Below, piece after piece: positions 15,853 to 44,606 of a stretch of 64,000 nucleotides of DNA; the stretch's first letter is position 1, and each line of letters opens with the position of its first letter. The notes under the pieces were generated by a model that saw only the letters and a program-made list of their open reading frames with translations, did no database searches and had not been told where the DNA came from. This DNA is from a bacterium (lineage in GTDB: Bacteria > Bacillota > Clostridia > Lachnospirales > Lachnospiraceae): contig CAVFNN010000002.1 of assembly GCA_963623925.1 (NCBI GenBank), forward strand, positions 78,247 to 142,246, written 5' to 3'. A program made the position numbers and the translations under genes.

Positions 15853-15971
15853 TTCAAACGTGCGCAAGGAGGTGCTGAAAGAAGGTTCACAGCTTCTTGC
15901 GCATTTTGCGATACTGCAGCTTTAAAGCACTAAAGCGGTATCGCGGCAAACATAACAAGGAGGAAATAGTT

Positions 15972-17690: not shown

Positions 17691-17713
17691 TCGGAAGAGA
17701 AATCTTCGATTGT

Positions 17714-17742
17714 GTGAGGAGGCAGTGGAACTGCCTCCTCAC
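17714..17742 (+). terminator. Stem-loop after oppA (partial terminator or mRNA stabiliser)
   Basis: 13-bp perfect stem GTGAGGAGGCAGT-GGA-ACTGCCTCCTCAC; only a weak U-tract. Confidence 0.6.
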
Positions 17743-17860
17743 CGCATTTCAGTCTGCCCCTGCGGGCTTCGGTGCGGGGCCCGGTTTTCCGGACCCGACC
17801 CCGAAGCCAGCAGACGATGCATTCGCCTGATGGCTGAAAATTAATCCTTAGGAGGTTCAA

Positions 17861-18796: not shown

Positions 18797-18797
18797 T

Positions 18798-19877: not shown

Positions 19878-19882
19878 GGAAT

Positions 19883-20971: not shown

Positions 20972-21914
20972 TGCAAAACCGCTCCTTGAGGTCACGGGGC
21001 TGAAGCAGTATTTCAAGGTTTCCAAGAGCTTCACGGTGAAGGCGGTTGACGATGTGAGCTTCAAGATCTATCCCGGCGAGACCTATGGTCTGGTGGGAGA
21101 GTCCGGCTCCGGAAAGTCCACCATCGGACGTTCCATCATTCGTCTCTACAATCCCACTGAGGGAAAGATCCTCTTCAATGATACGGAGATCAGCGGTCGT
21201 CTGAATAAGGAAAGTAACAACATGCTGCGCACCCAGATGCAGATGATCTTCCAGGATCCCATGGCCTCCCTGAACCCGCGTAAGAAGGTGGAGGACATCA
21301 TCGGTGAGGGTCTGGACATTCACGGTACCTGCAAGACCCGCGAGGAGAGAGACGCCAAGGTGAAGGCCATCTTGAAGAAGGTGGGTCTGGCACCGGAGCA
21401 TGCCACCCGTTATCCCCATCAGTTCTCCGGCGGACAGCGGCAGCGTGTCGGCATTGCCCGGGCGCTGATCATGAACCCGAAGCTGATCATCGCGGATGAG
21501 TGTATCTCCGCACTGGACGTGTCCATTCAGGCCCAGGTGGTGAACCTCATGAAGGACATTCAGGAGGAGACCGGCACGGCTTACCTCTTCATCGCCCATG
21601 ATCTGTCCATGGTCAAGTACATTTCCGACCGTATCGGCGTACTGCACCTCGGACATCTGCTGGAGACCGGCACCACTGACGAGATTTTCTCGCATCCGGT
21701 GCATCCCTACACCCGGTCTCTGCTGTCGGCGATCCCGTCCCCGAATCCGGTGGTGGAGAAGAAGAGAATCGCGGAGAGCTATGATTACAAGACCTCCGGT
21801 ATCGACTATTCCAAGGGAACCGATCATCTGGTGGAAGGCTCACATTATGTGCGTTGCACCGATGCCGAGTTCGAAGACTGGATGAAGCGGAAGCCGCTGG
21901 AGTACGACGCCTGA
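20955..21914 (+). CDS. oppF: Oligopeptide ABC transporter ATP-binding protein
   Basis: GESGSGKST, YPHQFSGGQRQR, SALDVSIQAQ, HPYT. Confidence 0.93.
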   Translation: MAVNYDAKPLLEVTGLKQYFKVSKSFTVKAVDDVSFKIYPGETYGLVGESGSGKSTIGRSIIRLYNPTEGKILFNDTEISGRLNKESNNMLRTQMQMIFQDPMASLNPRKKVEDIIGEGLDIHGTCKTREERDAKVKAILKKVGLAPEHATRYPHQFSGGQRQRVGIARALIMNPKLIIADECISALDVSIQAQVVNLMKDIQEETGTAYLFIAHDLSMVKYISDRIGVLHLGHLLETGTTDEIFSHPVHPYTRSLLSAIPSPNPVVEKKRIAESYDYKTSGIDYSKGTDHLVEGSHYVRCTDAEFEDWMKRKPLEYDA

Positions 21915-22156
21915 CATATCGGAAAATTCTATCGATGCCATTGTGAACTTTCAATAGCATTTAGCTATCACTAACGACCTTTCTTGTGCTACAGTTATGC
22001 ATATTTCTTGACTGTAAAGAGCATTCTGCGCAGGAAAGGCCGACGGATAGGATAATAAGATGTAAGCGGAGATTGGATATACATTGTATATCCTTTCCTG
22101 CGTATATCGTATATTCATAAGCCCACTCCTCTGCAGCAATGCAGGGGAGTATTTTT

Positions 22157-22915
22157 ATGCTGAAAATTGCAATCTATGGTAAGGGCGGCATCGGCAAATC
22201 CACGGTGACCTCCAATCTGGCGGCCGCCTTCGCGGTACGGGGAAAGCGCGTGATCCAGATCGGCTGTGATCCCAAGGCGGATTCCACGGGAAATCTCTTG
22301 TCCGGTGAACCGCTCATGCCGGTCATGAATTATATGCGGGAGTATGACCGGGATCCGGAAAGTCTCGAGGAGATCAGCCGCCGGGGCTTCGGCAATGTGC
22401 TCTGCATCGAAACCGGCGGTCCGACACCGGGCATGGGCTGTGCCGGTCGGGGCATCATCAGCACATTTAATCTTCTGGACGAGCTGCAGCTCTTGGAAAC
22501 GGAGCAGCCGGACGTGGTGCTCTTCGATGTTCTGGGCGATGTGGTCTGCGGTGGTTTTGCCGCACCCATCCGGGAGGGCTATGCCGAGAAGGTGCTGATT
22601 GTCACCAGCGGCGAGAAGATGGCGCTCTATGCCGCCAACAACATCAACACAGCGGTACAGAATTTCGAGGACCGCGGGTATGCCCGGGTCGAAGGCATTG
22701 TCCTGAACCGGAGGAACATTCCGGAGGAGGAGAGCCGTGTCAGAAAATTCGCAGAGGAGCGGGGGCTTCGCATCGCGGCGGATCTTCCCCGGAGCGACGA
22801 GATCAACCTGGCGGAGGACCAGGGGAAAACCGTCATCGAGGCCTATCCGGATTCCGCCATTGCAGAGAAATTCCTGAAGCTTTGTGATGACCTGCTTCGG
22901 GAGGATAAAGCATGA
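22157..22915 (+). CDS. NifH/BchL/CfbC-family nitrogenase iron-protein-like reductase
   Basis: [19 protein letters not shown], both 4Fe-4S ligands ([17 protein letters not shown]), MALYAANNI. Confidence 0.93.
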
Positions 22916-24192
22916 AAGCGCTGAGCTTCACAGTGGCAGAGCTTGCCGCGCTGGGGCCTGAAAAGTTGCCCGCAGAATTCAAAAACGATACGCATCTCAT
23001 CTACAGTTCCCCGGCCACCCTGGCCTTTAACTCGCCGGGCGCCGAGGGCTTCGGAGTGAAGCGGGCGGGCCTTTCCATTCCCGGCTCCGTTATGCTGATC
23101 ATTTCCCCGGGCTGCTGCGGACGAAACACGGGGGAGATCACCCGAATTCCCGGCTATGAGAACCGTTTCTTTTATCTTCTCATGGATGAGACGGATCTCG
23201 TGACGGGACGGCATCTCCGGAAAATTCCCGAGGCGGTGCAGGAAATCGTGGATTTTCTGCCCGAGAAGCCCTCGGTGGTGATGCTCTGCATTACCTGTGT
23301 GGATGCGCTGCTGGGCACCGACATGGAGCGGGTTTCCCGGAAGGCCGAGGAGGCCGCCGGAGTGCGCGTTCGTCCCTGTTATATGTATGCCCTGACCCGG
23401 GAGGGCCGGAAGCCGCCCATGGTGCATGTCCGGGAGTCCCTGTATTCTCTCGTGGAAAAGCAGAAAAAGCGGGGCAGCACCGTGAATCTTTTGGGCTTTT
23501 TCGCACAGCTGCAGGATGACTTCGAGCTCTATGAGATGCTGCGGCACATCGGTGTGAAGCAAATCAATGAAATGGGTCGCTGCGAGACTTACAGCGACTT
23601 TCAGCGCTTCGGCGAGGCGAATTTTTCTCTGGTGCTGAACCGGGAGGCGGTACCGGCGGCGCTGGATATGGAAAAGCGGCTGGGCATTCCCTTCATTTTG
23701 CTGGCACGTTTTTATGACATTGATGCGGTGCAGCGGCAGTATCAGGCCTTGGCGCAGGCCTTGAATCTTCCGCTGGAGACGGATCTAGGCTATGCCCAGG
23801 CAAAGGATGCGATTGAAAAGCTGAAAAAGGCCCGTCCTTCCCTGTGTTTCAATGTCGGCGAGTCCATGAACGGGAATCCTTTCGAGATGTCGGCGGCGCT
23901 GGTGAAGTATGGCTTCCGGGTGGGCGAGATCTACGGCAATCCCACGGCAGAGGATTTCCGGTACCTGCAGTTCCTGGCGGAGAAGAGTCCCGAAACCCGG
24001 GTTCTCTCCAACATGGAACCCACCATGCTGTACTATGACAGCAGTACCTGCCCCTGTGATGTGACCCTTGGCAAGGATGCGGCTTTCTATCAGCCGCAGG
24101 CAAAGCATGTGCGCTTTTCTGAAGACGAGCAGCCCTACGGCTATGCCGGAATCCGGCGGCTGATGGAAGAGATTCTGGAAGGAGTGAAGTGA
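22912..24192 (+). CDS. Nitrogenase component 1-like protein (pair 1, 'alpha'-type)
   Basis: [35 protein letters not shown] overlap with the nifH-like gene. Confidence 0.8.
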
Positions 24193-24193
24193 G

Positions 24194-25459
24194 ATGGTGC
24201 GCGGACTTCGAAAATATCTGACACCCTTCGCGCCGGATCAGTCCGGTGCGGTGTCTCTCCTGTATGAGCTGGGCGGCATGGTGGTGATCCTGGATGCGGG
24301 CGGCTGCACCGGCAATATCTGCGGCTTTGACGAACCCCGCTGGAGCAGCGAACGATCTGCCATTTTCAGCGCCGGACTTCGGGATATGGATGCCATCATG
24401 GGCCGGGACCGGGCGCTGGTGGAGAAAATTGCGAAGGCCCAGGAAAAGCTTGACGCAAAGTTCATCGCCATTGTGGGCACACCGGTACCGGCGGTCATCG
24501 GCACGGATTACCAGGCCCTCCGCCGGATGCTGCAGAAAAAGGTCAGTGTGCCCATCCTCTGCATCGAAACGAACGGCATGAAAAGCTTTGAATACGGCGC
24601 GGAAAAGACCTATCTTGCTCTGCTCGAGGCCTTCGCCTATCCCGCTTCGGAGGAAGAGGATAATGCAGGCGATGCGGAAAACCGGACGAAAGCCACTCGC
24701 ATCGGTGTCTTCGGCACCTTTCCCATGACGGAGAGTGATGCCGAGGAACGCAGTCACATCGCAGCGGGATTTACAGAGCAGCGGTTGGACCGGGACCTAT
24801 CTGATCACGCGTTTTCAGATGCTGGATTTTCCGGTGCCGGAGAGCCGGATCTCTGTTTTTATGGCCACGGCGCAAGTCTTGCGGATTATCGTCACTGTGG
24901 GCAGAACCGGCTGAATCTGGTGACCGCCGTGCCGGGAATGGTGGCAGCGAAGGCCCTGGAAAAACGCTTCGGCACGCCTTATAAAATCGGTCATTCCGGT
25001 GCCGGACGGCTCTTGCAAGCGGCCTGGGAGAAGCTTTCCGAAGTAGAGAAAGAGAAGCTTCGACACTTGCAGCATCCCCGGATCTTGATCGTGCAGGAGC
25101 AGATACTGGGGAATAGCCTACGGGATAGCCTGCGGGCAGCACCAGAGGGATTGTCCGCGCCGGGCGGACAAAAAAGCTGCGCAGAGGGAGAGCAGATTCT
25201 GGCATCAGATGAAGCAGGCCTCCAAAATCCAGAGATCCAGGTGATGAGCTTTTTCAAAATGCTGCCGGAGCTGATGGAAGCGGGAGACCGTTTCCTGGCG
25301 GAGGAAGCGGAGCTTTGGGAGTTGCTGCAAACAAGCTATGACCTGATCCTGGGCGATCCGGTGCTGCAGAAGATGTTGCCGAAGGATTTTAGCGGCTGCT
25401 TTTTGGCCATTCCGGAGCCCGCCATTTCCGGCTTTCCGGCCCTCACGATGGGAGAGTAA
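24194..25459 (+). CDS. Nitrogenase component 1-like protein (pair 1, 'beta'-type)
   Basis: DAGGC, SAGLRDMDAIMG, GTPVPAVIGTD, ETNG, AKALEKRFGTPY. Confidence 0.75.
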   Translation: MVRGLRKYLTPFAPDQSGAVSLLYELGGMVVILDAGGCTGNICGFDEPRWSSERSAIFSAGLRDMDAIMGRDRALVEKIAKAQEKLDAKFIAIVGTPVPAVIGTDYQALRRMLQKKVSVPILCIETNGMKSFEYGAEKTYLALLEAFAYPASEEEDNAGDAENRTKATRIGVFGTFPMTESDAEERSHIAAGFTEQRLDRDLSDHAFSDAGFSGAGEPDLCFYGHGASLADYRHCGQNRLNLVTAVPGMVAAKALEKRFGTPYKIGHSGAGRLLQAAWEKLSEVEKEKLRHLQHPRILIVQEQILGNSLRDSLRAAPEGLSAPGGQKSCAEGEQILASDEAGLQNPEIQVMSFFKMLPELMEAGDRFLAEEAELWELLQTSYDLILGDPVLQKMLPKDFSGCFLAIPEPAISGFPALTMGE

Positions 25460-25460
25460 G

Positions 25461-28001
25461 ATGGGTGAAACGTTTATGACAAAAAAATTTCATATCTATG
25501 GTGTGGTGCAGGGCGTCGGTTTCCGGCCCACCGTGGCACGGCATGCCGCGGAGAGCGGTATCACCGGCATGGTTTCCAATCGTGGTCCCTATGTGGAGAT
25601 TTTTGCCGAGGGAAGCGAGGAACAGCTCACGCATTTCCGGGCGCTAGTCCTGCAAAAGCCGCCGAAGAGAGCCACGATTTTGAAACTCACGGAGCTGCCC
25701 CTTTCCGAAGTGGAGAAGCAGCTGCATTTCCAAGACTTCCGCATCGTGGAGAGCGAGAAAACCACGGGAGAGATCTTTGTCTCCCCGGACATCGCCATGT
25801 GTCCGGAATGTGAGGCAGAGCTGATGGACCCGCAGAATCGCCGCTACCTGCATCCCTTCATCAACTGCACCTGCTGCGGCCCGAGGCTCAGTATATTGGA
25901 CAGCCTTCCCTACGACCGGGAGCGCACCTCCATGCAGCACTTTCCCATGTGTCCGGATTGCGAAAAGGAATACCACGATCCCGCGGATCGGCGCTACGAC
26001 GCCCAGCCCGTCTGCTGTCCCCACTGCGGTCCGGAATTGTATCTCCTGGGCAAGCCGGAGATCCGGGGCGCAGAGGCCTTGCAGCAAACCCGGAGAGTGA
26101 TCCGGGAGGGCGGCATTGTGGCCATCAAGGGCATCGGCGGCTTCCATCTCTGCTGCGACGCCACATCAGAAGTGGCAGTGCAGAAGCTGCGGGTGCAGAA
26201 AAATAGACCCGCGAAGCCCTTTGCCGTTATGGCCCGGAATCTGTCTGCGGCCGAAGACATTTGCGTAATCGACAGTCAGGAGAGAGAGATTCTGACGGGG
26301 CACCAGAAGCCCATTTTGCTGCTCCGAAAGCGGAAAAATATCGCTATTGCGGACGCTGTGGCGCCGGAGAATCCCTATCTCGGCGTGATGCTTCCCTACG
26401 CGCCGGTACAGCGGCTGCTCTTTGACTTCCCGGACGGCGTGGAAATGCCGTCGGTGCTCATCATGACCAGCGGAAACCATGCCGGGGCACCGATCTGCCG
26501 CGACGATGCGAGCGCGGCGCGGGAGCTAGGAGGTATTGCGGATCTGATCCTGTCCAACGACCGGGACATCCGCATGCGGGCGGACGACTCCGTCATGCAG
26601 ATCTTCCGGGGCGAGCCGCTGATGCTGCGGCGCTCCCGGGGCTATGCGCCGCTTCCCTATATGCTTTCCCGACCGGACGATGCGCATACAGCTGCGGGAA
26701 AAGAGCCGACAAATGCAAAGCGCCAGGTACTGGCCATCGGTGGTGAGTTGAAAAACACCTTCTGCTTTGGCGCGGGCGAGCTTTTCTATCCGGGCAGCTA
26801 TGTGGGCGACCTCACGGACCTTCGCACTTGTGACGCCCTGCGTGAGTCGGCAGAACGTATGGAGACGCTATTGGAGGCGAAACCGGAAATCATCGCCTGC
26901 GACCTCCATCCTCGTTACAATTCCACAACAGTGGCGGAGGAAATCGCGGAGGAACGGGGCCTTCCCTTGCTGCGCGTGCAGCATCACTATGCGCATATCG
27001 TATCCTGCATGGCGGAAAACGACCATCCCCAGCCGGTTATCGGCATTGCACTGGACGGCACGGGCTACGGCACCGACGGCAGCATCTGGGGTGGCGAAAT
27101 TCTCCTGGCGGACTACCGGCACTTCCGTCGCATTGCCAGTATGAAACCCTTCCTGCAGATCGGCGGCGACACGGCTTCCCGGGAGGGATGGCGCATCGCG
27201 GTGTCCATGATTTACAGTCTGGAAAAGGCGGAGAACCGGCTGGATTCGGACATCGGCGGCTTCGTGGCCCGGAACCGCACCGAGGAAATCGTTCGGCAGC
27301 TGGGCCTGGCGGACCAGAACACCCTGCGGGCGCAGTTCATGCTCCATGATCGGAATCTGAACGCCATCACCTCCACGAGCTGCGGTAGGCTCTTCGATGC
27401 TGTCAGTGCGCTGCTGGGGATTCGGCTGCATTCCACGTATGAGGGCGAGGGGGCCATTCAGCTTATGTATCAGGCCCTTGCGGCGGATCCGGAAAGTGCA
27501 CTTTCGCTGACGGCAGAATTTGATGCATTCCGGAAAAAGATGCAGCAAAAGGAAGAGGCCCTCGGCCAGAGCAGCATTGAAGAGGAAGGCATCTGGGAGG
27601 ATACGGAGGAAGCGGCAGCCAATGAGCTAGATGCGGAGGCGGATCGTCTCATCGTGCGGACGGACCTTTTGTTCCGCTTCCTACTGGAGAAGCGATTGAT
27701 GCTGACAGCCAAAAATCGGAAAGCGGATAATGTCTTCGGTGTGAATGAACTGGCCTATTTCTTTCATGAAGGGCTGGCGCGGCTGCTCACAGAAGCGGCG
27801 GCACAGCTGGCGGAAGAGAACAAGGTAGATACGGTGGCCCTGTCCGGCGGCAGCTTCCAGAACACCCTGCTTTTAGGGCTTATGGAGGACAAGCTTCAGG
27901 ACCGGGGACTGAAGGTGCTGAAGCATCATCTGATTCCCGCCAACGACGGAGGCGTCGCATTGGGACAGGCCGTTGTCGCCCGTTGGGCCGCGGAATTTTG
28001 A
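25461..28001 (+). CDS. hypF: Carbamoyltransferase HypF
   Basis: GVVQGVGFRP acylphosphatase domain, two Zn fingers (CPEC..NCTCCGPR; CPDC..CCPHCGP), KGIGGFHL, QHHYAH, PANDGGVALGQ. Confidence 0.97.
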   Translation: MGETFMTKKFHIYGVVQGVGFRPTVARHAAESGITGMVSNRGPYVEIFAEGSEEQLTHFRALVLQKPPKRATILKLTELPLSEVEKQLHFQDFRIVESEKTTGEIFVSPDIAMCPECEAELMDPQNRRYLHPFINCTCCGPRLSILDSLPYDRERTSMQHFPMCPDCEKEYHDPADRRYDAQPVCCPHCGPELYLLGKPEIRGAEALQQTRRVIREGGIVAIKGIGGFHLCCDATSEVAVQKLRVQKNRPAKPFAVMARNLSAAEDICVIDSQEREILTGHQKPILLLRKRKNIAIADAVAPENPYLGVMLPYAPVQRLLFDFPDGVEMPSVLIMTSGNHAGAPICRDDASAARELGGIADLILSNDRDIRMRADDSVMQIFRGEPLMLRRSRGYAPLPYMLSRPDDAHTAAGKEPTNAKRQVLAIGGELKNTFCFGAGELFYPGSYVGDLTDLRTCDALRESAERMETLLEAKPEIIACDLHPRYNSTTVAEEIAEERGLPLLRVQHHYAHIVSCMAENDHPQPVIGIALDGTGYGTDGSIWGGEILLADYRHFRRIASMKPFLQIGGDTASREGWRIAVSMIYSLEKAENRLDSDIGGFVARNRTEEIVRQLGLADQNTLRAQFMLHDRNLNAITSTSCGRLFDAVSALLGIRLHSTYEGEGAIQLMYQALAADPESALSLTAEFDAFRKKMQQKEEALGQSSIEEEGIWEDTEEAAANELDAEADRLIVRTDLLFRFLLEKRLMLTAKNRKADNVFGVNELAYFFHEGLARLLTEAAAQLAEENKVDTVALSGGSFQNTLLLGLMEDKLQDRGLKVLKHHLIPANDGGVALGQAVVARWAAEF

Positions 28002-28023
28002 TAGTAGAAGAGGGAGTAAATCT

Positions 28024-28236
28024 ATGTGTGTAGGACTTTCAGCAAAGGTAATTCAGGTTTCCAATGGCATGGCGCTGGTGTCGGCAGACGGCGCGAAGCG
28101 CAGCGTTTCTGCGGCGCTGCTTGACCAGCTGCAGCCCGGGGATTATGTCATGGTGCATGCCGGTGCAGCCATTGCCCGGATTTCGGATTCGGACGTGGAG
28201 GAGACGGACGCACTGCTGGAGGAAGGACTGAAGTAA
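28024..28236 (+). CDS. hypC: HypC/HupF chaperone
   Basis: N-terminal MC, PGDYVMVHAG; 70 aa between hypF and hypD. Confidence 0.92.
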   Translation: MCVGLSAKVIQVSNGMALVSADGAKRSVSAALLDQLQPGDYVMVHAGAAIARISDSDVEETDALLEEGLK

Positions 28237-28237
28237 G

Positions 28238-29329
28238 ATGGATACACTGGAACAGGCAAAAAAGATCCTGCGGGAATACAAGGGACCGAAATGCCGGATC
28301 ATGGAGGTCTGCGGCACCCATACCCACGAAATTTTCCGTCTGGGTATCCGACAGCTTTTGTCGGAAAATATCCAGCTGATTTCCGGCCCGGGCTGCCCGG
28401 TCTGTGTGACGCCGGTTTCCTATATTGATGAAGCGATCTGGCTCGCAGAAGAAAAGGGATGCACGATCTGCACCTTCGGCGACCTCGTGCGGGTGCCGGG
28501 AAGCCACAGCTCGCTGCAGCTGAGCCGCGGAAGGGGCAGTGACATCCGGGTGGTGTATTCTCCCTTGGATGCGGTAACGCTCGCAGAAAAGCATCCGGAA
28601 AAAGAGGTGGTTTTCCTCTCCGTGGGCTTCGAAACCACCACACCGGCCAGCTGCCTCGCGGTGCAGAAGGCTCAGGAAGAGGGACTGCATAACTTTTCCC
28701 TCCTCACCGCCAACAAAACCATGCCCGGGGCCATTGAGGCCATGGCAGGCTCCACAGACCTCTTCCTCTACCCGGGGCACGTATTGGCCATCACCGGCAC
28801 CGCCTATTATGAGGAGCTGGCGCGCCGGGGCATCAGCGGTGTCTGCGCCGGGTTCACGGGACGGGAATTATTGACGGCACTGGCCATCGCCGTGACGGAA
28901 TTTTCCAAGCTTCCGGCAGCAGAGGATAATGCCGTCGGCCCGCAGCAGCCGGGTTTCTTCCGGAATTGCTATCCGCGGGTGGTGACCAGTGCGGGCAGCC
29001 CCAATGCACAGAAAATGACGGCGGAGATGCTGGAGGCCGTGGACGCGGAGTGGCGCGGCATCGGCGTGATCCCGGGATCGGGCCTTGCTCTGAAGGAAAG
29101 CTTTTCGGACTATGACGCCCGGCGGAAGTACGAGATTCCGAAGCTTGACAGCCGCTACAAGACCGCCTGCCGTTGCGGTGAGGTATTGACAGGAAAGATT
29201 CGTTCCGCGGAATGTCCGCTTTTCGGCAAGACCTGTACACCGGAGCATCCTGTGGGGGCCTGCATGGTGTCCTCGGAGGGCGCCTGTGCGGCCTGGTACA
29301 GTTATGGCGGAGAAGTTAGCATCCATTAA
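28238..29329 (+). CDS. hypD: Hydrogenase formation protein HypD
   Basis: MEVCGTHTH, GPGCPVCVTP, GFETT, PGHV, C-terminal CRCG...CPLFG..CTP..PVGACMVSSEGAC. Confidence 0.97.
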   Translation: MDTLEQAKKILREYKGPKCRIMEVCGTHTHEIFRLGIRQLLSENIQLISGPGCPVCVTPVSYIDEAIWLAEEKGCTICTFGDLVRVPGSHSSLQLSRGRGSDIRVVYSPLDAVTLAEKHPEKEVVFLSVGFETTTPASCLAVQKAQEEGLHNFSLLTANKTMPGAIEAMAGSTDLFLYPGHVLAITGTAYYEELARRGISGVCAGFTGRELLTALAIAVTEFSKLPAAEDNAVGPQQPGFFRNCYPRVVTSAGSPNAQKMTAEMLEAVDAEWRGIGVIPGSGLALKESFSDYDARRKYEIPKLDSRYKTACRCGEVLTGKIRSAECPLFGKTCTPEHPVGACMVSSEGACAAWYSYGGEVSIH

Positions 29330-29365
29330 TGTTGCAGCGATTGGCGATACGATTAGGAGGAAAAA

Positions 29366-30373
29366 ATGAATTCTTCAGTGGTGACCCTGGCCCATGGGGC
29401 CGGCGGCAAGCAGACAAGCGAGCTGATTCATCAGGTATTTCAGGCACATTTTCAAAATCCCTATTTCACGGCGGACGACGCCTCGGTGCTGCCGGTGCCA
29501 AAAGGAAGGATGGCCATGACCACAGACGGCTTCATCGTTTCCCCGGCCTTTTTCCCGGGCGGCAACATCGGCAAGCTGTCCATCTGTGGCACCGTCAATG
29601 ACCTGGCCTGCATGGGCGCCCGGCCCCTGTACATGACCTGTGCCTTTGTCATCGAAGAGGGCTTCCCCATGGACAAGCTGGAGGAAATTGCTGCTGCCAT
29701 GGAGAAAACCGCCAAAGAAGTGGGCGTATGTCTCGTGGCGGGAGATACCAAGGTGGCCGGCAAGGGACAGTGTGACGGTCTCTTCATCACCACCACCGGC
29801 GTGGGCGAGCTTCTGCCGGAGGTGGAGACCTCCGGCAAGCTTGCGAGACCTGGCGACGACATCATCGTGACCGGTGATGTGGGACGGCATGGCTGCACCA
29901 TTCTCCTTGCTAGGGATGAATATGGCATCGAAGCAGAGGTTAGCTCCGATTGTGCCCCTCTCTGGAAGCCGGTGGAGGCAGCACTCACGGCGGTAAAAGA
30001 TATCCACGTCATCCGGGATGCTACCCGGGGCGGTGTCGGCACCGTATTGTATGAAATTGCGGCGGAGAGTCAGGTGGGTATTCACCTGGACCGGGCGGCC
30101 ATTCCTGTGGATCCGGCAGTGGCCGGCACGACCGGTATGCTGGGCCTGGAGCCCCTGTATCTGGCCTGTGAGGGCCGCCTGGTGATCTTTGTGCCCCACG
30201 AAGAAAGCGAGAAGTTGCTGTCTGTGCTGCGCGAACAGTCCTATACAAGTGGTGCGGCCATTATCGGTCAGGTGACCGAGAAGAACCCCGGCAAGGTCGT
30301 TATGCGCACCGAGATCGGCTCCGAAACCCTCCTCCCCGAACCGGGGAATGAATTACTTCCTAGGATTTGTTAA
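29366..30373 (+). CDS. hypE: Carbamoyl dehydratase HypE
   Basis: LAHGAGG, GTVNDL, GDTKV, RDATRGG and C-terminal PRIC. Confidence 0.97.
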   Translation: MNSSVVTLAHGAGGKQTSELIHQVFQAHFQNPYFTADDASVLPVPKGRMAMTTDGFIVSPAFFPGGNIGKLSICGTVNDLACMGARPLYMTCAFVIEEGFPMDKLEEIAAAMEKTAKEVGVCLVAGDTKVAGKGQCDGLFITTTGVGELLPEVETSGKLARPGDDIIVTGDVGRHGCTILLARDEYGIEAEVSSDCAPLWKPVEAALTAVKDIHVIRDATRGGVGTVLYEIAAESQVGIHLDRAAIPVDPAVAGTTGMLGLEPLYLACEGRLVIFVPHEESEKLLSVLREQSYTSGAAIIGQVTEKNPGKVVMRTEIGSETLLPEPGNELLPRIC

Positions 30374-30382
30374 GGGGGCATT

Positions 30383-30628
30383 ATGGACACACGCGTAGCC
30401 GTATTGGCCATTATCATTGAAAACCCGGATTCTGTGGCGGCCGTGAATGCCGCACTGCATGAGAGCCGGGACTACATCATCGGCCGCATGGGCATTCCCT
30501 ACCGGGCCAAGGGCATCAGCATCATCAGCATTGCCGTGGATGCGCCCCAGCCCCTGGTGTCTGCCCTGTCCGGCAAGCTGGGACAGCTCTCCGGCGTCAG
30601 CTGCAAGGCCGTTTATTCGAAGGTATAA
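30383..30628 (+). CDS. TM1266-family ACT-like protein (putative iron-only hydrogenase system regulator)
   Basis: 81 aa, MDTRVAVLAIIIE...IIGRMGIPY...ALSGKLGQLSGV. Confidence 0.85.
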   Translation: MDTRVAVLAIIIENPDSVAAVNAALHESRDYIIGRMGIPYRAKGISIISIAVDAPQPLVSALSGKLGQLSGVSCKAVYSKV

Positions 30629-30630
30629 GC

Positions 30631-32091
30631 ATGCAATACAATTGCCCTGTTCATGAAAGCTGGAATATTGTGCACATCGGGAGCCTCCTGCCGGAGAGCC
30701 ATGCCATCTACGTCTGCGGCGACAACTGTCTCCGGGGCGTGGTGATGACCGCGGCGGAAATGGGATTGACGTCCCGCTTTTCGGCGGTGATGCCCACGGA
30801 AGCGGAACTTCTGGACGGCCGCCTGGAAGAGGTGACCATTCAGGGCACGGCGAATCTGATCCGGAAATTAGCCTATCGGCCGAAGGCGGTGCTGCTCTTT
30901 CTGGTCTGCATGCACCACATGGTGGGCGCGGATGAAAACTATATTTTCCGCACATTAGAACAGGAATTTCCCGACATCTGTTTCCTGCGCTGTTGGATGG
31001 ATCCGGCCATGCAGAAGCTCGGCCCCAGTCCCGACATGAAGCTGCGCAGGGAAATGCTTTCGCCGCTAAAGGCCGGGAAACGGACTCAGGAAATGGAAAA
31101 CCAGACAGAAGAGGCCTTCGTTGCGCTGGTATCGGATAACCTGCCTCTGCCAACGGAAAGTACACTGGCGCTTTTTCTGCGAGAATTGGGCATTCCCTAT
31201 CGCCAGCCCCAGGATTGCACCAGCTTCTTGGACTATCAGTCCCTGGGAAAAGCTTCCCTGTTCCTGACCCGCAGTCCGGCTGCCCGTTTCGGCCTCCGGA
31301 AGTTCACCGCGGAGGAGCACAAGGAGGGGCTGTACCTTCCGGTCAAGCTTGCTTATGAGAGCATCCGGGAAAATTTGCAGCTTTTGTTGGAAAAGTTGTG
31401 GACACAGGGGCTTTTAAAAACACCAGTACGTTTATTACTTGCGCCACAGCGAGAAGAGATGCCGGAGGGACAGACAACACCAACCATTGCAGAAGCCGCA
31501 TCTTTAGAGGAATGGTACAGCTGGCTGTCGGATTTCTGTCAGACAGAAGAAGACAGCTGTGAAGCGGCCTTTATGTCACTGCCGTCTTCTCTGTATCAGA
31601 CCGAAATCAGTCTGGACGGTGTGGGCTTGGTGCAGCCTCTAAGTGCGGCGCGGTTGCTCTTAAGCCACGGTCTCCCGGTGAAGCGTATTTATCTGGATGC
31701 GCCGCTTCCTGAGGAGGAAGCAGATCTTCAGTGGCTGCAAGGCCGTGCGTCGGAGGTGGAGATCCTCAGTGTCAGCGATGTCGAGGCCTTCAACCGCGCC
31801 AGAGCGGGTGCGGCGCAAAGGCAGGATGAAAGCGCCTGCGGAACGGGAGATATTGCGGAACAGATGTTTCTGCGCCGGCCCCTGCGCCTTGCCCTGGGAC
31901 CGGTGGCGGCCTTTTATGAGGACACGCCGTATTTTGTGAACCAGATCGAAAACCGGGGAAATTGGGGCTATCAGGCTGTCCGGCAGCTGCTTCAGGACAT
32001 GACAGAAGCCATGGCAAAGGAAAAGTCTGCAGAGGAGCTGGTGCAGCGGAAGGGATGGGGCCTGCCCAGCCTGGTGGAGCCGCTGCCCTGA
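30631..32091 (+). CDS. Nitrogenase component 1-like protein (pair 2, 'alpha'-type)
   Basis: CGDNCLRG, TEAELLDG, PKAVLLFLVCMHHMVGAD, RCWMDP; alignable by eye with 22912-24192. Confidence 0.7.
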   Translation: MQYNCPVHESWNIVHIGSLLPESHAIYVCGDNCLRGVVMTAAEMGLTSRFSAVMPTEAELLDGRLEEVTIQGTANLIRKLAYRPKAVLLFLVCMHHMVGADENYIFRTLEQEFPDICFLRCWMDPAMQKLGPSPDMKLRREMLSPLKAGKRTQEMENQTEEAFVALVSDNLPLPTESTLALFLRELGIPYRQPQDCTSFLDYQSLGKASLFLTRSPAARFGLRKFTAEEHKEGLYLPVKLAYESIRENLQLLLEKLWTQGLLKTPVRLLLAPQREEMPEGQTTPTIAEAASLEEWYSWLSDFCQTEEDSCEAAFMSLPSSLYQTEISLDGVGLVQPLSAARLLLSHGLPVKRIYLDAPLPEEEADLQWLQGRASEVEILSVSDVEAFNRARAGAAQRQDESACGTGDIAEQMFLRRPLRLALGPVAAFYEDTPYFVNQIENRGNWGYQAVRQLLQDMTEAMAKEKSAEELVQRKGWGLPSLVEPLP

Positions 32092-32160
32092 TGCTCAAGG
32101 CATTAGAAAATTCTCTGGCAGAGCAAAGTAAAAATGCCGGGCAGGAGAAAGAGGGGAAGA

Positions 32161-33369
32161 ATGAAGGAAGTCTATAGAGTGGCGCCGGTACCGGCGGGAG
32201 ATGTCTCCGGCATCTGTTCGGCATTGTATGAAATGGGCGGCATGATTGTGATGCACGATCCCTCCGGCTGCAACTCCACCTACAATACCCACGATGAGCT
32301 CCGCTGGTACCGAAAGCCCGCCAACATTTTCATCAGCGGCTGCAGCATGCGGGATCTGGTGCTGGGACGAGACGATAAGCTAATGGATGACATCACAGTG
32401 GCCTTCGGGAACATTTCTCCCAGACCGCGCTTTATCGCCCTCTGCAATTCACCGCTACCTTATCTCAATGGTACAGATTTTCGGGGGATCTGCCGGCAGC
32501 TGGAAAAGCACTGCGGCGTTCCCTGTTTCTATGTGCCCAGCAACGGCATGCATGATTATGTGACGGGCGTCGGTGAAGCATGGCTGCAATATGCCAAATC
32601 GCCGGCCAGTGGATTCACTGCCGCTGCGGATCTTCGCCGGAGAGAAAACGAACACGCTGCGATCGGTCAGACAGGTGTGCAAACCATTTCCGTGAACCTT
32701 TTGGGCCTCACGCCTCTGGATTATCCCAACCCGGAGAATGTGCGGCGATTGTATACACTGCTGCAGAAAAATGGCTTTTCCGTGCTGGCAAATTTCGCCT
32801 ACGAAACCGAAATCGAGAAGCTTTGCCGGGCGCCGGAAGCCGCCGTGAACCTGTTGCTTTCTGCGACCGGCCAGCCACTGGCGGCGTATATGCTTAAGGA
32901 ATATGGCGTTCCCTATGTCATCGGCGCACCGGTACAGGGCTTTTCGACTGTGGTGCTGCGTGCCCTGCGCAGGGCGGCTGAAGGAAGCGAAACCGCCGTT
33001 ATCAGCTACGCCCGGGCAATGGATTCCCGGCCGGTGGAAGCCGTCTTTATTGGGGAAGCGGTTTTGATGGATTCGCTTGCCAGGGCCTGGGAGCTTGCCC
33101 ATGGGAAACGCGCCTATGTGCTCTGTCCCCTGGAAAAGAGTGCGTCTTTGCTGCCGCCGTCCCTTGGCCGTTGTGTAGAGGGAGAGGAGGGACTCGAACA
33201 AGTCCTGCAAATGCTGGCCGAAGACATTGCCCTGAAAGACCGGACGTTGCCGGTTTACGCGGACCCGCTGTACCAGCCCATTCTGCCGCAGCACTGTATT
33301 TTGCAGCCCGTGCCGAGTCTCGGAATTTCCGGACGACTCTACAGAAGCAGCTTTCCGAAATTTTTTTGA
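32161..33369 (+). CDS. Nitrogenase component 1-like protein (pair 2, 'beta'-type)
   Basis: LYEMGGMIVMHDPSGC, DLVLGRD, NSPLPYLNGTD, SNGM, VNLLG, EYGVPY; clear paralogue of 24194-25459. Confidence 0.78.
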   Translation: MKEVYRVAPVPAGDVSGICSALYEMGGMIVMHDPSGCNSTYNTHDELRWYRKPANIFISGCSMRDLVLGRDDKLMDDITVAFGNISPRPRFIALCNSPLPYLNGTDFRGICRQLEKHCGVPCFYVPSNGMHDYVTGVGEAWLQYAKSPASGFTAAADLRRRENEHAAIGQTGVQTISVNLLGLTPLDYPNPENVRRLYTLLQKNGFSVLANFAYETEIEKLCRAPEAAVNLLLSATGQPLAAYMLKEYGVPYVIGAPVQGFSTVVLRALRRAAEGSETAVISYARAMDSRPVEAVFIGEAVLMDSLARAWELAHGKRAYVLCPLEKSASLLPPSLGRCVEGEEGLEQVLQMLAEDIALKDRTLPVYADPLYQPILPQHCILQPVPSLGISGRLYRSSFPKFF

Positions 33370-33473: not shown

Positions 33474-35660
33474 ATGTGGTACAGTATTCCGACAACTGAA
33501 GAGGAACAGAAGCAGGCCCTGAAGCTGATCTTTGGCAAGAATGATGCTGAAAGAGAGACCGTGGCGGATTTGCTGTCGGCCTATACGACACTGGATAACC
33601 AGCAGATCAACGGATTGAAGGATGAGCTTTATGACCAGCTGTATAAGGCGTATCAGGATGCCGGTATGACCGAGGGAAAGACGAAGGATGCGCTTTTCCC
33701 GGCGGAGACCCGGATACCCGGAAATTTCAAAAAGGCCTTCGAAACTCTGTGGCATACGCTTTCCTATCAGGAGTTGTATCAGACCATTGAAGTGGCTCCG
33801 CTGGATGCGGACATCGAGGCGCTGTTAAAGGTTTCGGATGCACTGGAAGCCAAGGGAATGGTGACGCACAGTGATATGAAGACCATTTTCTCGGATCTTC
33901 TGGATTTGAAGGATCAGTACGGGGATGCGTATTTTGCCAGAAGGAATAAGTGGCCGTACAATCCGGTGGATATCGTGGAGTCTATGCTGGGCAATGGCTC
34001 GCACGCGAGGGAAATCACGGAGGCCCTGAGCAAGGGAGAAATCCATGCAGCGGATTACCTGCAGAGCCGCATCAAGCTTTTGCAGATGGCATCGGAAAAT
34101 TTCGTAGATTCCTTTGCACCGCTGTTCTCCTTCTATGATCCCAGAACCATGGATAAGCAGAAGGATCCTTCCGTAGGGGAGATCCAGACCTATCTTGCGG
34201 ATCTGAAGGCTGCCAAGGAGAGCTTGGCTGCAGCCCAGAATGAATTTTCCGCCCAGAATGTTTCTGCCCGGAGGGGGGTGGAGAATGCCGATGCACAGCT
34301 TGCGGAGCTGGAGGACTTCAGGAAGTATGAGGAAAGTGTTCGTTTTGAGGATTGCTCCGACGCAGAGCGTTCTGCGTTTGGCAGACTGGCGGGAGCTGTA
34401 CAGGATAATCAGACGCTGGCGCTGAATATAGAGCTCGGTAACGAGTGCGTTCAATACAATATACTCCGCGACAAAAACGAGGATATGCTGAGAAGTCTCG
34501 AATATCTCGTGAATAAAGGACTGACACCGGAGAGCGAGCAGGCTGCGGAGAAGTTGAATGCGTACAGAGAGCAGTTCAATGCACTGGATGTGCAGCTGCC
34601 TGCATTCAAGCACTTCGATGAGGATGCCCTCAAGGCCTATATGGCGGCAGAGGACAAGCTCGTGAATACCATTGTTGACAACAACCGGGAGACCTTCTCT
34701 TATCGTTTCGCCCTGGAGGAGGCAAATAACAACATTCAGGAGATTCAGCTGACCCAGGAGACGCTGAAGAAGAAAATGAAGGCTGCTGACCAGCAGACAC
34801 CGGAGCGTCTGAAGGAAGCCGCGAAGCAGCAGGAAGCTTTGACCATTGCTCTGCAGGAGCAGATGCAGAAGCGGGACGAGGCACAGAGTGGGCTGGAGAA
34901 GGTTATGCCGTCCTGCCGGAAAAATTTTGAGGATGCCCGCAATGCGCTGAAGGACGTTAAGAATAACGGACTGGATCATCTCTTCCCCGAAGCATACAAG
35001 GAGCAGCTGAAGACAGAGATCCGGCAGCAGAAGCAGCAGAAGATGGCAGCTCTGCAGGAAAATCTGGACAAGATCAAGGAGACCGCGCAGGATCTCAGCA
35101 TGGCCTACAGAAGAGAGGGAAATCTTCGCGAGCTGGCGGACACCTTCCATGCGGTGAGCAACAGCACAGAGAGACATTGGTATGGCACAGTCAAGAAGAC
35201 ACCGAAGGTATATACGGACCTGAAAGAGGCCATGGAGAATTATCTGCAGGATAAGACCGCAGAAAATGCCAAGCGTGCTTATGAGGAGTGCCGGAATTAT
35301 CTCACCAGCTATATGAAGGAAGACGGCAAGGGGCTGAAGCACGGATCCAATCTTGAGAATGCCCGTCATCAGAGCGTTGTGAGAATGCTGGAGATCATGG
35401 AGGATATTAAGGAATTCCAGCCGCTTCTGCAGAAGGATCTGCAGAAGGAGAAGGCACCGGATGGCTGGGAGGTCGTGCATGAAAAAGAGGATGCCCTGAA
35501 GTACAAAAAGCTGAACTTCAGTGATCTGGAGAAGTCACTGGCGAAGCACTCTTCCAAGGTGAAGAATAGACAAAATCAGGCAGAGGATGCCCAGAAGTCC
35601 AAGGCCTTTTCTGACCTCAACAAGCGCATTGAAAAGAAGGCAAAGCAGAGAGCAAAGTAA
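33474..35660 (+). CDS. Hypothetical large alpha-helical/coiled-coil protein
   Basis: 728-aa ORF with AAAGGAG RBS, E/K/Q/A-rich, no signal peptide or recognisable catalytic motif. Confidence 0.85.
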   Translation: MWYSIPTTEEEQKQALKLIFGKNDAERETVADLLSAYTTLDNQQINGLKDELYDQLYKAYQDAGMTEGKTKDALFPAETRIPGNFKKAFETLWHTLSYQELYQTIEVAPLDADIEALLKVSDALEAKGMVTHSDMKTIFSDLLDLKDQYGDAYFARRNKWPYNPVDIVESMLGNGSHAREITEALSKGEIHAADYLQSRIKLLQMASENFVDSFAPLFSFYDPRTMDKQKDPSVGEIQTYLADLKAAKESLAAAQNEFSAQNVSARRGVENADAQLAELEDFRKYEESVRFEDCSDAERSAFGRLAGAVQDNQTLALNIELGNECVQYNILRDKNEDMLRSLEYLVNKGLTPESEQAAEKLNAYREQFNALDVQLPAFKHFDEDALKAYMAAEDKLVNTIVDNNRETFSYRFALEEANNNIQEIQLTQETLKKKMKAADQQTPERLKEAAKQQEALTIALQEQMQKRDEAQSGLEKVMPSCRKNFEDARNALKDVKNNGLDHLFPEAYKEQLKTEIRQQKQQKMAALQENLDKIKETAQDLSMAYRREGNLRELADTFHAVSNSTERHWYGTVKKTPKVYTDLKEAMENYLQDKTAENAKRAYEECRNYLTSYMKEDGKGLKHGSNLENARHQSVVRMLEIMEDIKEFQPLLQKDLQKEKAPDGWEVVHEKEDALKYKKLNFSDLEKSLAKHSSKVKNRQNQAEDAQKSKAFSDLNKRIEKKAKQRAK

Positions 35661-35693: not shown

Positions 35694-37049
35694 ATGAGTC
35701 TGCAGAACACGCCGTCTTCAGAACGGCTCCATATCGGCTTTTTCGGCCGCCGGAACGTAGGTAAGTCAAGTCTTGTGAATCGCGTCACGGAGCAGGAACT
35801 CTCCGTGGTCAGCGATACACTGGGCACCACGACGGACCCGGTACAGAAGGCCATGGAGCTGTTGCCCATCGGTCCGGTGGTCATCATTGATACACCGGGT
35901 TATGACGATATCGGTGCGCTGGGAGAGAAGCGGGTTCGAAAGACGAAAGAAATCCTGAACCGGGTGGACATCGCCGTTCTGGTCACCGACGAGACGACGC
36001 TGTCCAATCCTGTGGACCGGGAGCTCCTGCAGATTTTCCGGGAGAAAAAGATTCCTTATGTGATCTGTTACAACAAATCGGAGACGCTTCCGGCCTTTCA
36101 GGACAATGCCTTCGGCATCGTCAACGATGAGACCCAGGCATTTCCGGCAGCGCTGCTGTCTTCCCTGATTCATCTCCAGGAGGAAAGTGTAGAGACAGAC
36201 TTTGTCAGGGAAGCTGCGCCGAAGACATTGGAAAAGGGGGCAGCAGAGGAGAAGCTGCGCTACGGCGAAATTCAGGTCAGCGCCCTCACAAACCAGAATG
36301 TCTATCTCCTGAAGGCACTGATCGGGCGACTGGGAAAGTCCGTACTGGAAACAAAGGACCTGTTGGAGGGCCTGGTGGCACCGGAGGACCTCTTCATTCT
36401 GGTGATCCCTGTGGACAGCTCGGCACCGAAGGGAAGACTGATCCTGCCGCAGCAGATGGTGCTGGCGGAGATCCTCAACAACCATGCGCGGGCCATCTGC
36501 TGTCAGCCGGAGGAGCTTGGAGATACAATTGCGCTTGTGAACCAGGACGGAAGGAACCACATCCGTCTGGTGATCACCGACAGTCAGGCTTTCCAGACAG
36601 TCAGCCGTATTGTGCCCCGGGAGGTAATGCTGACATCCTTCTCCATCCTTATGGCCCGGTACAAGGGCTTTCTCAAGGAAGCGTTGAAGGGCGTGGCGGC
36701 CATTGAAACTTTGCAGGATGGCGACCGGGTGCTGATTTCCGAGGGCTGTACCCACCATCGCATGTGTGACGACATCGGCAGCTTTAAAATTCCAAACTGG
36801 CTACGTAAATATACGGGAAAAGCGTTGGAATTTGAGACCACCAGCGGCCACGGCTTCCCGGAGGAGCTGGGAGGGTACAAGCTGATCATTCACTGCGGCG
36901 CCTGCATGCTGAACGACCGGGAGGTGTTGTTCCGTATGAAGCAGGCCCAGGACCAGGGCGTGCCCTTCACGAACTACGGCACCTGCATTTCCTTTATGAA
37001 TGGAATTCTGGCGCGGTCCACAGAAATGCTGGAGGGCTATGAACTGTGA
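35694..37049 (+). CDS. hydF: [FeFe]-hydrogenase H-cluster maturation GTPase HydF
   Basis: GRRNVGKSS, GTTTD, DTPG, APKGRLILPQ, ITDSQ, EGCTHH...HCGACM cluster motif. Confidence 0.96.
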   Translation: MSLQNTPSSERLHIGFFGRRNVGKSSLVNRVTEQELSVVSDTLGTTTDPVQKAMELLPIGPVVIIDTPGYDDIGALGEKRVRKTKEILNRVDIAVLVTDETTLSNPVDRELLQIFREKKIPYVICYNKSETLPAFQDNAFGIVNDETQAFPAALLSSLIHLQEESVETDFVREAAPKTLEKGAAEEKLRYGEIQVSALTNQNVYLLKALIGRLGKSVLETKDLLEGLVAPEDLFILVIPVDSSAPKGRLILPQQMVLAEILNNHARAICCQPEELGDTIALVNQDGRNHIRLVITDSQAFQTVSRIVPREVMLTSFSILMARYKGFLKEALKGVAAIETLQDGDRVLISEGCTHHRMCDDIGSFKIPNWLRKYTGKALEFETTSGHGFPEELGGYKLIIHCGACMLNDREVLFRMKQAQDQGVPFTNYGTCISFMNGILARSTEMLEGYEL

Positions 37050-38104
37050 CGAACAAAGAACTGATCCAGCAGCTTGCTGCGGAGGGAAATCTTTCCGACG
37101 CAGCGCTGCTGCAGCTTCTGAACGAGCATACGGAAGAGGACAAGGAATTCTTGTTTTCTCTGGCCCGGGAGAAGCGGGAAAGATATTACGGGAAAGAAAT
37201 CTACCTCCGGGGACTCATTGAGTTCTCGAACTATTGCAAGAATGATTGCAGGTACTGCGGCATCCGTTGCAGCAATGGTCACGCGGAGCGTTACCGCCTT
37301 AGCAAAGGGGAAATACTGGATTGCTGTACCCAGGGTTATGCCCTGGGCTTTCGCACGTTTGTATTGCAGAGCGGTGAGGACCTTCACTACAGCACGAAGG
37401 ACATCTGTGATATTGTATACCATATCCGCAGCCGTTTCCCGGACTGTGCTGTGACACTGTCCATCGGTGAGAAAAGCCGGGCGGACTACCAGGCCTACTT
37501 CGATGCGGGTGCGGAGCGGTATCTGCTGCGGCATGAGACCGCAGATAAGGCGCATTACCGGCATTTGCACCCTGAAGTGCTTTCGCTGGAAAACCGGATC
37601 CGCTGTCTCTATGATCTGAAAGAAATCGGTTATCAGGTGGGCTGCGGCATGATGGTGGGGGCACCGGGGCAGACAAAGGAATGCCTGCTTTCCGACTTCC
37701 GCTTCATGCAGGAATTGCAGCCGGAGATGATCGGTATTGGGCCCTTCATTGCCCACCACGACACGCCTTTCCGCGATATGCCCAACGGGACGGTGGAGGA
37801 AACCTTGTGGCTCCTGGGGCTTTTGCGGCTCTTCTTCCCCTATGCGCTGCTGCCGGCCACCACGGCCCTCGGTACACTGGACCCCCTGGGCCGGGAAAAG
37901 GGCGTTCTGGCTGGTGCCAATGTCGTCATGCCGAATCTTTCTCCCCGGGGCGTACGAAAGAAGTACCTCCTCTATGACGGAAAGATCTGCACCGGCGATG
38001 AGGCGGCTGAGTGCCGCCGCTGCATGTCTCTCCGCATGGAAAGAATCGGCTACCAGGTGGTGGAGAAGAGAGGGGATTGTTATCTGCACGGCCCTGTGTT
38101 ATGA
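37046..38104 (+). CDS. hydE: [FeFe]-hydrogenase maturation radical SAM protein HydE
   Basis: RGLIEFSNYCKNDCRYCG (CX3CX2C), RYLLRHET, MIGIGPF, PATTAL, GANVVMPN, YLLYDGK; GTGA overlap with hydF. Confidence 0.9.
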   Translation: MTNKELIQQLAAEGNLSDAALLQLLNEHTEEDKEFLFSLAREKRERYYGKEIYLRGLIEFSNYCKNDCRYCGIRCSNGHAERYRLSKGEILDCCTQGYALGFRTFVLQSGEDLHYSTKDICDIVYHIRSRFPDCAVTLSIGEKSRADYQAYFDAGAERYLLRHETADKAHYRHLHPEVLSLENRIRCLYDLKEIGYQVGCGMMVGAPGQTKECLLSDFRFMQELQPEMIGIGPFIAHHDTPFRDMPNGTVEETLWLLGLLRLFFPYALLPATTALGTLDPLGREKGVLAGANVVMPNLSPRGVRKKYLLYDGKICTGDEAAECRRCMSLRMERIGYQVVEKRGDCYLHGPVL

Positions 38105-44505: not shown

Positions 44506-44606
44506 GATAAAGGCTGTGTCTGTTTTGTGACTTTTTTTGTGCTATGATACCGACATCAAAAGAAGAACAGGGCGATCCCGAAGGGAACGTCAGAAAGGAT
44601 AAAGCT

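Follow-up and report, generated by a model that had tools for sequence, protein, structure and literature searches.

HydG is regarded as the source of the CO and CN ligands of the H-cluster of [FeFe]-hydrogenases. Its product, [Fe(CO)2(CN)(cysteinate)], called complex B, is the substrate of HydE, and a synthetic analogue of complex B replaces HydG fully in vitro (PMC11256358; this and the other papers cited here were available as excerpts). HypCDEF build an Fe(CN)2CO unit (PMC9431212). The same survey of 2022 reports that, of eight acetogenic Clostridium genomes, five lack hydG, and that HypCDEF occur without HypAB in five; its excerpts draw no link between the missing HydG and the orphan HypCDEF. 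Dos Santos et al. (2012) described a 'NifHEN-like' gut clade with two linked NifHEN-like copies, two alpha and one beta cysteines, and adjoining hydrogenase maturation genes, and proposed in one sentence a role in the assembly of an active-site metallocluster (PMC3464626). The operon considered here lies in a 64,000-nucleotide stretch of a Lachnospiraceae genome, the window (assembly GCA_963623925.1, contig CAVFNN010000002.1, positions 78,247 to 142,246 of the forward strand), and encodes two nitrogenase-component-1-like pairs, a1b1 and a2b2. It agrees with that clade in the linked copies, the two-plus-one cysteines and the neighbourhood, and Coprococcus and Dorea loci are among its relatives. 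In the excerpts of the 2012 paper the hydrogenase class, HydG and an importer-linked short form are not named and no test is reported. The gene cluster itself has thus been known since 2012. Judged from comparative genomics, the operon is likely the core of a route that does without HydG in supplying the Fe(CO)2(CN) unit used by HydE.

A literature search that reached few subscription papers yielded no publication on a replacement of HydG. The excerpts of a 2026 review (PMC13474568) contain the word 'hydrogenase' three times, never in connection with this cluster, and do not discuss the clade; those of PMC12552129 contain nothing on the cluster, and a term search of PMC12578642 gave no match.

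The operon is a single run on the + strand with the conserved gene order nifH-a1-b1-hypFCDE-TM1266-(nifH2)-a2-b2-hydF-hydE. In the window it consists of the following genes:

22157..22915, + strand: Fe protein, NifH-like, in the a1-linked (H1) clade; PF00142, with Walker A and the two cluster Cys motifs
22912..24192, + strand: a1, alpha-type component-1 subunit; PF00148; conserved C68, C69, C126, C129, C156, C224
24194..25459, + strand: b1, beta-type subunit; PF00148; conserved D15, D34, C38, C43
25461..28001, + strand: HypF carbamoyltransferase, motifs intact; TIGR00143, 722 bits (cut-off 466)
28024..28236, + strand: HypC; Cys2 and His45 invariant in 50/50 aligned sequences
28238..29329, + strand: HypD scaffold, motifs intact; TIGR00075, 377 bits (cut-off 193)
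29366..30373, + strand: HypE with C-terminal PRIC; TIGR02124, 413 bits (cut-off 252)
30383..30628, + strand: TM1266-family iron-only hydrogenase system protein; TIGR03959, 106 bits (cut-off 61); PF21699
30631..32091, + strand: a2, alpha-type subunit; conserved H15, C29, C33, C93, H95, H96, C121, C196
32161..33369, + strand: b2, beta-type subunit; PF00148; conserved D14, H32, D33, C37, H44
35694..37049, + strand: HydF GTPase scaffold; TIGR03918, 502 bits (cut-off 326)
37046..38104, + strand: HydE radical SAM maturase of ordinary sequence; TIGR03956, 557 bits (cut-off 255)

Two of these genes, hypC and TM1266, are short and lie between longer open reading frames. The four component-1-like frames and their motifs, first noticed in a sequence-only reading of this DNA, lie where that reading had placed them. 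Relatives of a1 are numerous: at least 2548 homologues were found among 7998 candidates scored, and a scan of GTDB gave at least 582 confirmed relatives among the 599 matches listed, from which 80 loci were kept. Wherever the locus is long enough (66 of 66), a1 is followed by hypF, C, D and E; the other 14 of the 80 are too short. Three pattern matches in viral contigs scanned with a1 included no relative. Two relatives with 38-43% identity to a1 (P0147, P0148) come from bins named by their source as Desulfovibrionaceae, so that the family may extend beyond Bacillota.

The host genome, which is 97.8% complete, contains one group A and one group B1 [FeFe]-hydrogenase. HydG was not found in it; the sole match to the HydG model was HydE itself, with 66.7 bits against a cut-off of 312. 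Neither a [NiFe] or complex-I-type large subunit nor HypA, NifB or carbon monoxide dehydrogenase (CODH) was found in the host genome; HypB was not searched for. CODH as a CO source was rejected, the only prismane-family gene encoding the hybrid-cluster protein.

The distribution of the operon relative to HydG was determined for 201 genomes from the gut and rumen family to which genome G290 belongs, with an E value below 1e-100 taken to define an a1 orthologue; three weaker matches (G390, G491 and G500; E 1e-41 to 1e-52) were judged not to be orthologues and left out of the counts. The sample contained 18 genomes with an a1 orthologue, 113 with HydF, 87 with HydG and 33 with HypD. All 18 carriers possessed HydF, HypD and HydE and none possessed HydG, which was present in 87 of the other 95 HydF genomes; among the 88 genomes without HydF there was no carrier. 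When the centre genome was excluded, HydG occurred, among the HydF genomes, in 0 of 17 carriers versus 87 non-carriers with and 8 without it, and the Fisher probability of 2e-14 overstates this difference, since kin are not independent. Twenty-six of the 113 HydF genomes lacked HydG, and 22 to 23 of the 26 bore either the long operon or a short form of it. Eight HydF genomes of the family had neither HydG nor an a1 orthologue, among them four with the short operon (G337, G443, G455, G461) and G491 with a split a2/b2-like pair. HydG was present in two genomes with weak a1 matches, G500 and, in a sample of the phylum, G152 (a1-like, 33%). This second sample comprised 281 genomes, of which 159 encoded HydF and 151 HydG above the cut-off. 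Comparison by hand left nine genomes with HydF and without HydG, namely seven with the long operon (including G000), one with the short operon (G147) and one with neither (G254), and an a1 orthologue was found in none of the 151 HydG genomes. In 50 further carriers, taken from the 80 GTDB loci according to the length of their contigs, HydG was found once, a [NiFe] subunit six times (the four printed being Ech-type by motif) and a strong [FeFe] match 43 times. The matches to HydG below the cut-off in 27 of the 50 carriers were taken for ThiH; two of them (L085, L087) lie in thiamine gene clusters, the gene names of which we presume from the sequence. A look-up of sequence clusters returned no named Clostridium acetogen. 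From gene order and distribution the pairs are likely tied to H-cluster synthesis in the place of HydG. The substrate, which the sequence-only reading had left unknown, is narrowed accordingly.

If the Hyp proteins of the operon served to mature a [NiFe]-hydrogenase that had been missed in the assemblies, their clustering with the pairs and with hydE and hydF would reflect co-regulation only. The [NiFe] subunits in six of the 50 carriers and in five of six distant carriers, as well as the many incomplete bins, would fit such an explanation, but neither a large subunit nor HypA occurs in the nearly complete host genome, and in the family sample 14 of the 15 HypD genomes without the operon have a [NiFe] large subunit versus 2 of the 18 with it. 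In both of these carriers another hypD lies next to the [NiFe] gene, and four of the five distant [NiFe] carriers also possess a second hypD, one of these copies being partial, which amounts to six of the seven [NiFe]-bearing carriers checked. The explanation is thereby largely refuted and is very improbable. Among 71-77 copies of the operon, almost all have unbroken Hyp motifs. As in [NiFe] maturation, all four Hyp proteins pass their cut-offs and keep their motifs; the difference is that HypA and the large subunit are missing from the host genome and that the Hyp set goes with a1b1 and persists where a second set, linked to [NiFe], is present.

Compared with the canonical HydG-HydE-HydF system with TM1266, HydE, HydF and TM1266 of the operon likewise pass their cut-offs and the end product is presumably the same, but HydG is absent and HypCDEF and the two nitrogenase-like pairs are found in the operon instead. 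HydE was compared between 29 module genomes and 32 HydG genomes. No residue in this set was diagnostic of partnership with the module or with HydG, and in a FastTree phylogeny the two forms were interleaved, with 17 changes of label of which at least 10 are forced by strong branches. A specialised HydE in module genomes was looked for and not found. The upstream supplier seems to have changed many times, with an ordinary HydE throughout.

The HydE result bears on a different interpretation of the operon, in which the pairs are end enzymes: Hyp, HydE and HydF would build an Fe-CO-CN cofactor for a1b1 and a2b2, which would then reduce an unspecified substrate. Such a role would account for a Hyp set that has no [NiFe] target in most carriers, for the many conserved His of a2 and b2 and the several extra Cys of a1, and for the presence of two pairs, since a maturase pair combined with a catalytic pair is the pattern of NifEN and NifDK. 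The exclusion of HydG (0/18 and 1/50) would not follow from it, and HydE is ordinary and interleaved with HydG-partnered HydE. Moreover, the carriers hold [FeFe] enzymes that need a cofactor, and hydE and hydF are often distant from the operon. We consider the end-enzyme role quite unlikely.

The four subunits are arranged as two paralogous types. BLASTP relates b1 to b2 (E 1e-26) and a1 to a2 (E 1e-13), in agreement with the sequence-only reading, and profile-profile comparison of a1 with a2 (probability 100, E 2e-42, 392 columns) identifies them as full-length paralogues. The pairing into alpha and beta, proposed in the same reading, is borne out by natural fusions of a1 with b1 (15) and of a2 with b2 (1). 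PF00148 is reached by a1, b1 and b2; in the Pfam scan the a2 of the window alone did not pass, while 38 of the 43 members of the a2 alignment did. The start of b2 at 32161 is backed by M1, which is kept in at least 95% of 64 relatives. Predicted models of a1 (pLDDT 86.5) and a2 (pLDDT 85.9) match nitrogenase component-1 folds, at identities to solved nitrogenase-family chains of 12-18% and 9-15%, respectively. Most relatives of a2 have an N-terminal arm of some 30 residues and a C-terminal Cys motif, both of which are missing from the a2 of the window. This a2 forms a long branch, and a2, b1 and HydF bear lineage-specific insertions, which coincide with the loss of a second NifH. A prediction of the complex of a1, b1 and HypC with a 4Fe-4S cluster scored 0.00 and carries no weight either way.

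Metal ligands were read from alignments of 64-88 sequences per subunit and from a MAFFT L-INS-i alignment that included annotated NifD/K/E/N and BchN/B/Y/Z. Of the P-cluster Cys, the alpha subunits have the second and third (a1 C69, C129; a2 C33, C93) but not the first; the beta subunits have only the second (b1 C38; b2 C37). At the third position the betas have Pro, as had been noticed before. The Asp that had been assigned to their first position is indeed conserved but lies one column later, the Cys column itself containing Pro, Gly or Ala. Each alpha has an extra conserved Cys near the second one (a1 C68, 88/88; a2 C29, 72/73), which could complete a four-Cys [4Fe-4S] site, and the aligned ligands are compatible with the simple [4Fe-4S] site suggested earlier. 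Conserved His are H15, H95 and H96 in a2 and H32 and H44 in b2. Equivalents of Cys275 and His442 are absent from the alignment: the Cys275 column contains Asn, Ser or Ala, and the His442 motif was not found.

With these data the possibility can be judged that the pairs are divergent members of the nitrogenase, NifEN, MAR, ISR, DPOR/COR or CfbD class acting on the same substrate. The fold is shared and the beta ligands, with the second Cys only, resemble those of BchZ and NifN. However, no curated NCBIfam model of nitrogenase, NifEN, DPOR or CfbD came near its cut-off, all scores being about one ninth of it or less. The pairs have three of the six P-cluster Cys in place of the six of NifDK, VnfDK and AnfDK. 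The best NifEN score was 59.6 bits against 505, with the first Cys missing and a position outside the Nif clades; DPOR/COR models gave at most 37 bits against 490-509, the first alpha Cys again being absent, and BchB of DPOR has Asp at the second position where the betas have Cys. For CfbCD, TIGR03282 scored 29 bits against 268 and CfbC 298 against 402, and the pairs are heteromeric in contrast to the homodimeric CfbD. The NifH-like protein falls below the cut-offs of the nifH, CfbC, BchL and BchX models. MarDK (MAR) and Nfa differ in the Cys set, Cys275 and MarB/NifB, and identity to 9fmg and 9d9u is 13-16%. In a component-1 tree of 84 rows (LG+G4, no mixture model, quick search) a1, a2 and the importer-linked alphas formed one group and b1, b2 and the importer-linked betas another, each with support 100. 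Both were separate from Nif, from the other Nif-like pairs and from Bch; the tree held one DPOR and one COR sequence each, on long branches, and was built without CfbD, named MarDK, ISR and Group VI. Placement within one of the characterised clades on the tree, which would have spoken against the sequence-only reading, was thus not observed. Its statement that the pairs do not fix N2 agrees with models far below their cut-offs, the missing Cys275 and His442, and the missing NifB. Taken with the separate clades and the low identities, membership in a known class is extremely improbable. The pairs share with NifEN and DPOR/COR/CfbD the fold, the Fe-protein partner, the second and third alpha and second beta Cys and the lack of the FeMoco His; they differ by the missing first alpha Cys, the Cys added beside the second, their own clades, and a context free of tetrapyrrole and nif genes. 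Group VI NFL proteins, compared by their description in the excerpts of PMC13474568 only, are alike in lacking NifB, Cys275 and His442, in having at most four of the six P-cluster Cys and in being highly divergent, but are known from Elusimicrobia and from a tetrapyrrole context.

The sequence-only reading had assumed one Fe protein for both pairs. For the host genome, in which one NifH-like gene was found, this holds; in general it does not, a second NifH preceding a2 in 39 of the 62 loci that reach a2. In a quick tree the NifH of the window groups with a1-linked copies, whereas the second copies show a loose affinity to NifH from short operons. Because of this placement and the frequency of a second NifH, the single Fe protein is attributed to secondary loss. 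An obligate asymmetric tetramer, also considered in that reading, is unlikely, since a2b2 occurs without a1b1 in five genomes.

The short operon, in G337, G443, G455 and G461, consists of a FecCD-type importer, nifH, a2-like and b2-like genes and hydF; three of the four also have TM1266 and two have hydE, and the importer comprises a FecCD permease and a PF01497 binding protein. HypD was not found in these four genomes. Short-form loci are L094, L095, L096, L097 and L106, and in two of them, L096 and L106, the ABC ATPase carries a fused TM1266-like domain. A third form (L101:6479-10575, L160:2029-6536) has an SsuA/NMT1-type ABC importer beside hydF and neither HydG nor a nitrogenase-like pair; in addition it has TM1266 or a divergent HydE below the cut-off, and might import a later precursor. 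Sister cassettes of nifH with an alpha/beta pair (L103, L104, L105, L177, L178) lie beside iron-chelate importers in four of five cases; TonB-dependent receptor genes and a gene for an alpha/beta hydrolase are close to one. These cassettes may serve to free metal from chelates by ATP-driven reduction.

Their importer context allows a plainer role for the pairs of the operon as well, in which they only free iron by ATP-driven reduction of a chelate, Fe(II) passing to HypD or HydE and CO and CN coming from Hyp alone or as free ligands. Besides the FecCD-type importers of the sister pairs, once with TonB-dependent receptor genes nearby, the permease and binding protein of the short operon speak for it, and HydE and HydF alone give about 1% activation, which is raised by free CO or CN (PMC9431212). 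Yet the long operon, which has no importer, keeps two distinct pairs; the short operon, which has no Hyp proteins, would have no cyanide source unless the imported chelate bears the ligands; and HydG genomes need iron too, without having the module. Release of iron as the only function is therefore unlikely.

In the HydG-independent route, the association of a1b1 with HypCDEF and of a2b2 with HydE and HydF, the near-complete exclusion of HydG, and the replacement of Hyp and a1b1 by an importer lead us to infer two stages, in which the pairs likely work as ATP-driven reductases. HypF and HypE would make the cyanide ligands and HypCD assemble Fe(CN)2(CO), as is established for [NiFe]-hydrogenases and assumed here. 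NifH1 and a1b1 would then take the Hyp unit in place of the [NiFe] large subunit, or contribute CO by reducing CO2, and yield a fairly stable Fe-CO-CN precursor. In a third step NifH2 and a2b2 would exchange one cyanide for CO and cysteine and thereby form complex B or an equivalent. This might take place at an interface [4Fe-4S] cluster with the predicted ligands C29, C33 and C93 of a2 and C37 of b2, which would supply low-potential electrons next to a His-rich pocket. The conversion of complex B to the diiron subcluster by HydE and HydF is established. In the short operon the importer would deliver the precursor from outside, and in the host genome the single NifH1 would serve both pairs. 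The exact chemistry assigned to the a1b1 and a2b2 steps is tentative and may well prove different; each pair might reduce CO2 to CO, remove one cyanide or reduce the iron complex itself. For the wider scheme we see a little less than an even chance: the Fe(CN)2(CO) of HypCDEF would be remodelled by two ATP-driven reductases, so that three metalloenzyme assembly lines meet, and other anaerobes would import a stable iron-carbonyl-cyanide intermediate and finish it with a2b2 alone.

Several points weigh against the proposed route. The whole case consists of comparative genomics, and many of the genomes are incomplete bins. Those relatives that are closest to both pairs are accompanied by iron-chelate importers, not by hyd genes. 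Four genomes with HydF and without HydG (G460, G501, G254, G378) do not contain the module, which therefore is not the sole way round HydG; one of them, G378 (L102:7752-9983), lacks HydE, has its hydF split and bears a truncated hydG joined to a TM1266-like start, which appears to be a decaying canonical operon. G288 (loci L217 and L084) possesses both the long operon and TM1266-hydE-hydG. Seven of the 50 further carriers gave no [FeFe] match at E 1e-70, a limit that group B enzymes do not reach and below which they were not rechecked. The [NiFe] subunits in five of the six distant carriers also count here, as does G026, which has the hypD of the operon only; there, the Hyp set may serve the [NiFe]-hydrogenase as well. 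To our knowledge no nitrogenase-like enzyme performs a ligand exchange of the kind proposed for a2b2. Complex B lasts for minutes only (PMC11256358), which leaves the cargo imported by the short operon uncertain.

Records of Blautia, Dorea, Coprococcus and Roseburia are among the GTDB hits. Blautia luti produces and consumes H2 and has two [FeFe] enzymes in its genome, and the activity of B. schinkii is high (PMC12773636). In genomes titled Blautia luti or B. schinkii (G313, G319, G326) the operon is present and neither HydG nor a [NiFe] subunit was found, although the assayed strains may differ from the sequenced ones. If the route exists, it would explain the active hydrogenase of these common gut H2 cyclers, address the known puzzle of HydG-less anaerobes, assign a function to a nitrogenase-like clade and offer biotechnology a tyrosine-independent maturation route. 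NifH-like genes of this type would then be no sign of nitrogen fixation.

Two elements precede the operon:

21999..22046, + strand: conserved structured leader RNA; core in 51/77 leaders, with covarying pairs
22125..22160, + strand: terminator-like hairpin of 11 pairs with a T-rich tail, ending at the nifH start; consensus match only

The model of the leader RNA scores the window with 39.9 bits, by construction, and no Rfam family came near its cut-off, with a chance match only. Leader and hairpin together are a possible riboswitch or protein-binding attenuator. In G288 the model matches upstream of TM1266-hydE-hydG (E 0.014), and the long operon there also lies behind a match; 16 other upstream stretches of canonical hydE (1.3 kb) gave no leader match below E 0.6.

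Between b2 and hydF the window contains an insertion:

33474..35660, + strand: 728-residue open reading frame, unrelated to the conserved system and outside it; no Pfam or NCBIfam family

It has paralogues on contigs C32 and C63 and homologues in 3 of the 80 loci; it follows b2 here and a2 in L004, L005 and L007, and is missing from L006. Similar long orphan frames occur elsewhere in the window, for example at 44544-46766. Just upstream of the operon lies an oligopeptide-type ABC operon (15897-21914), which was not seen in the conserved cluster. In G518 (L113:5491-18727) the operon adjoins genes that, read from the sequence, resemble those for HydABC, a hydrogenase of the electron-bifurcating kind.

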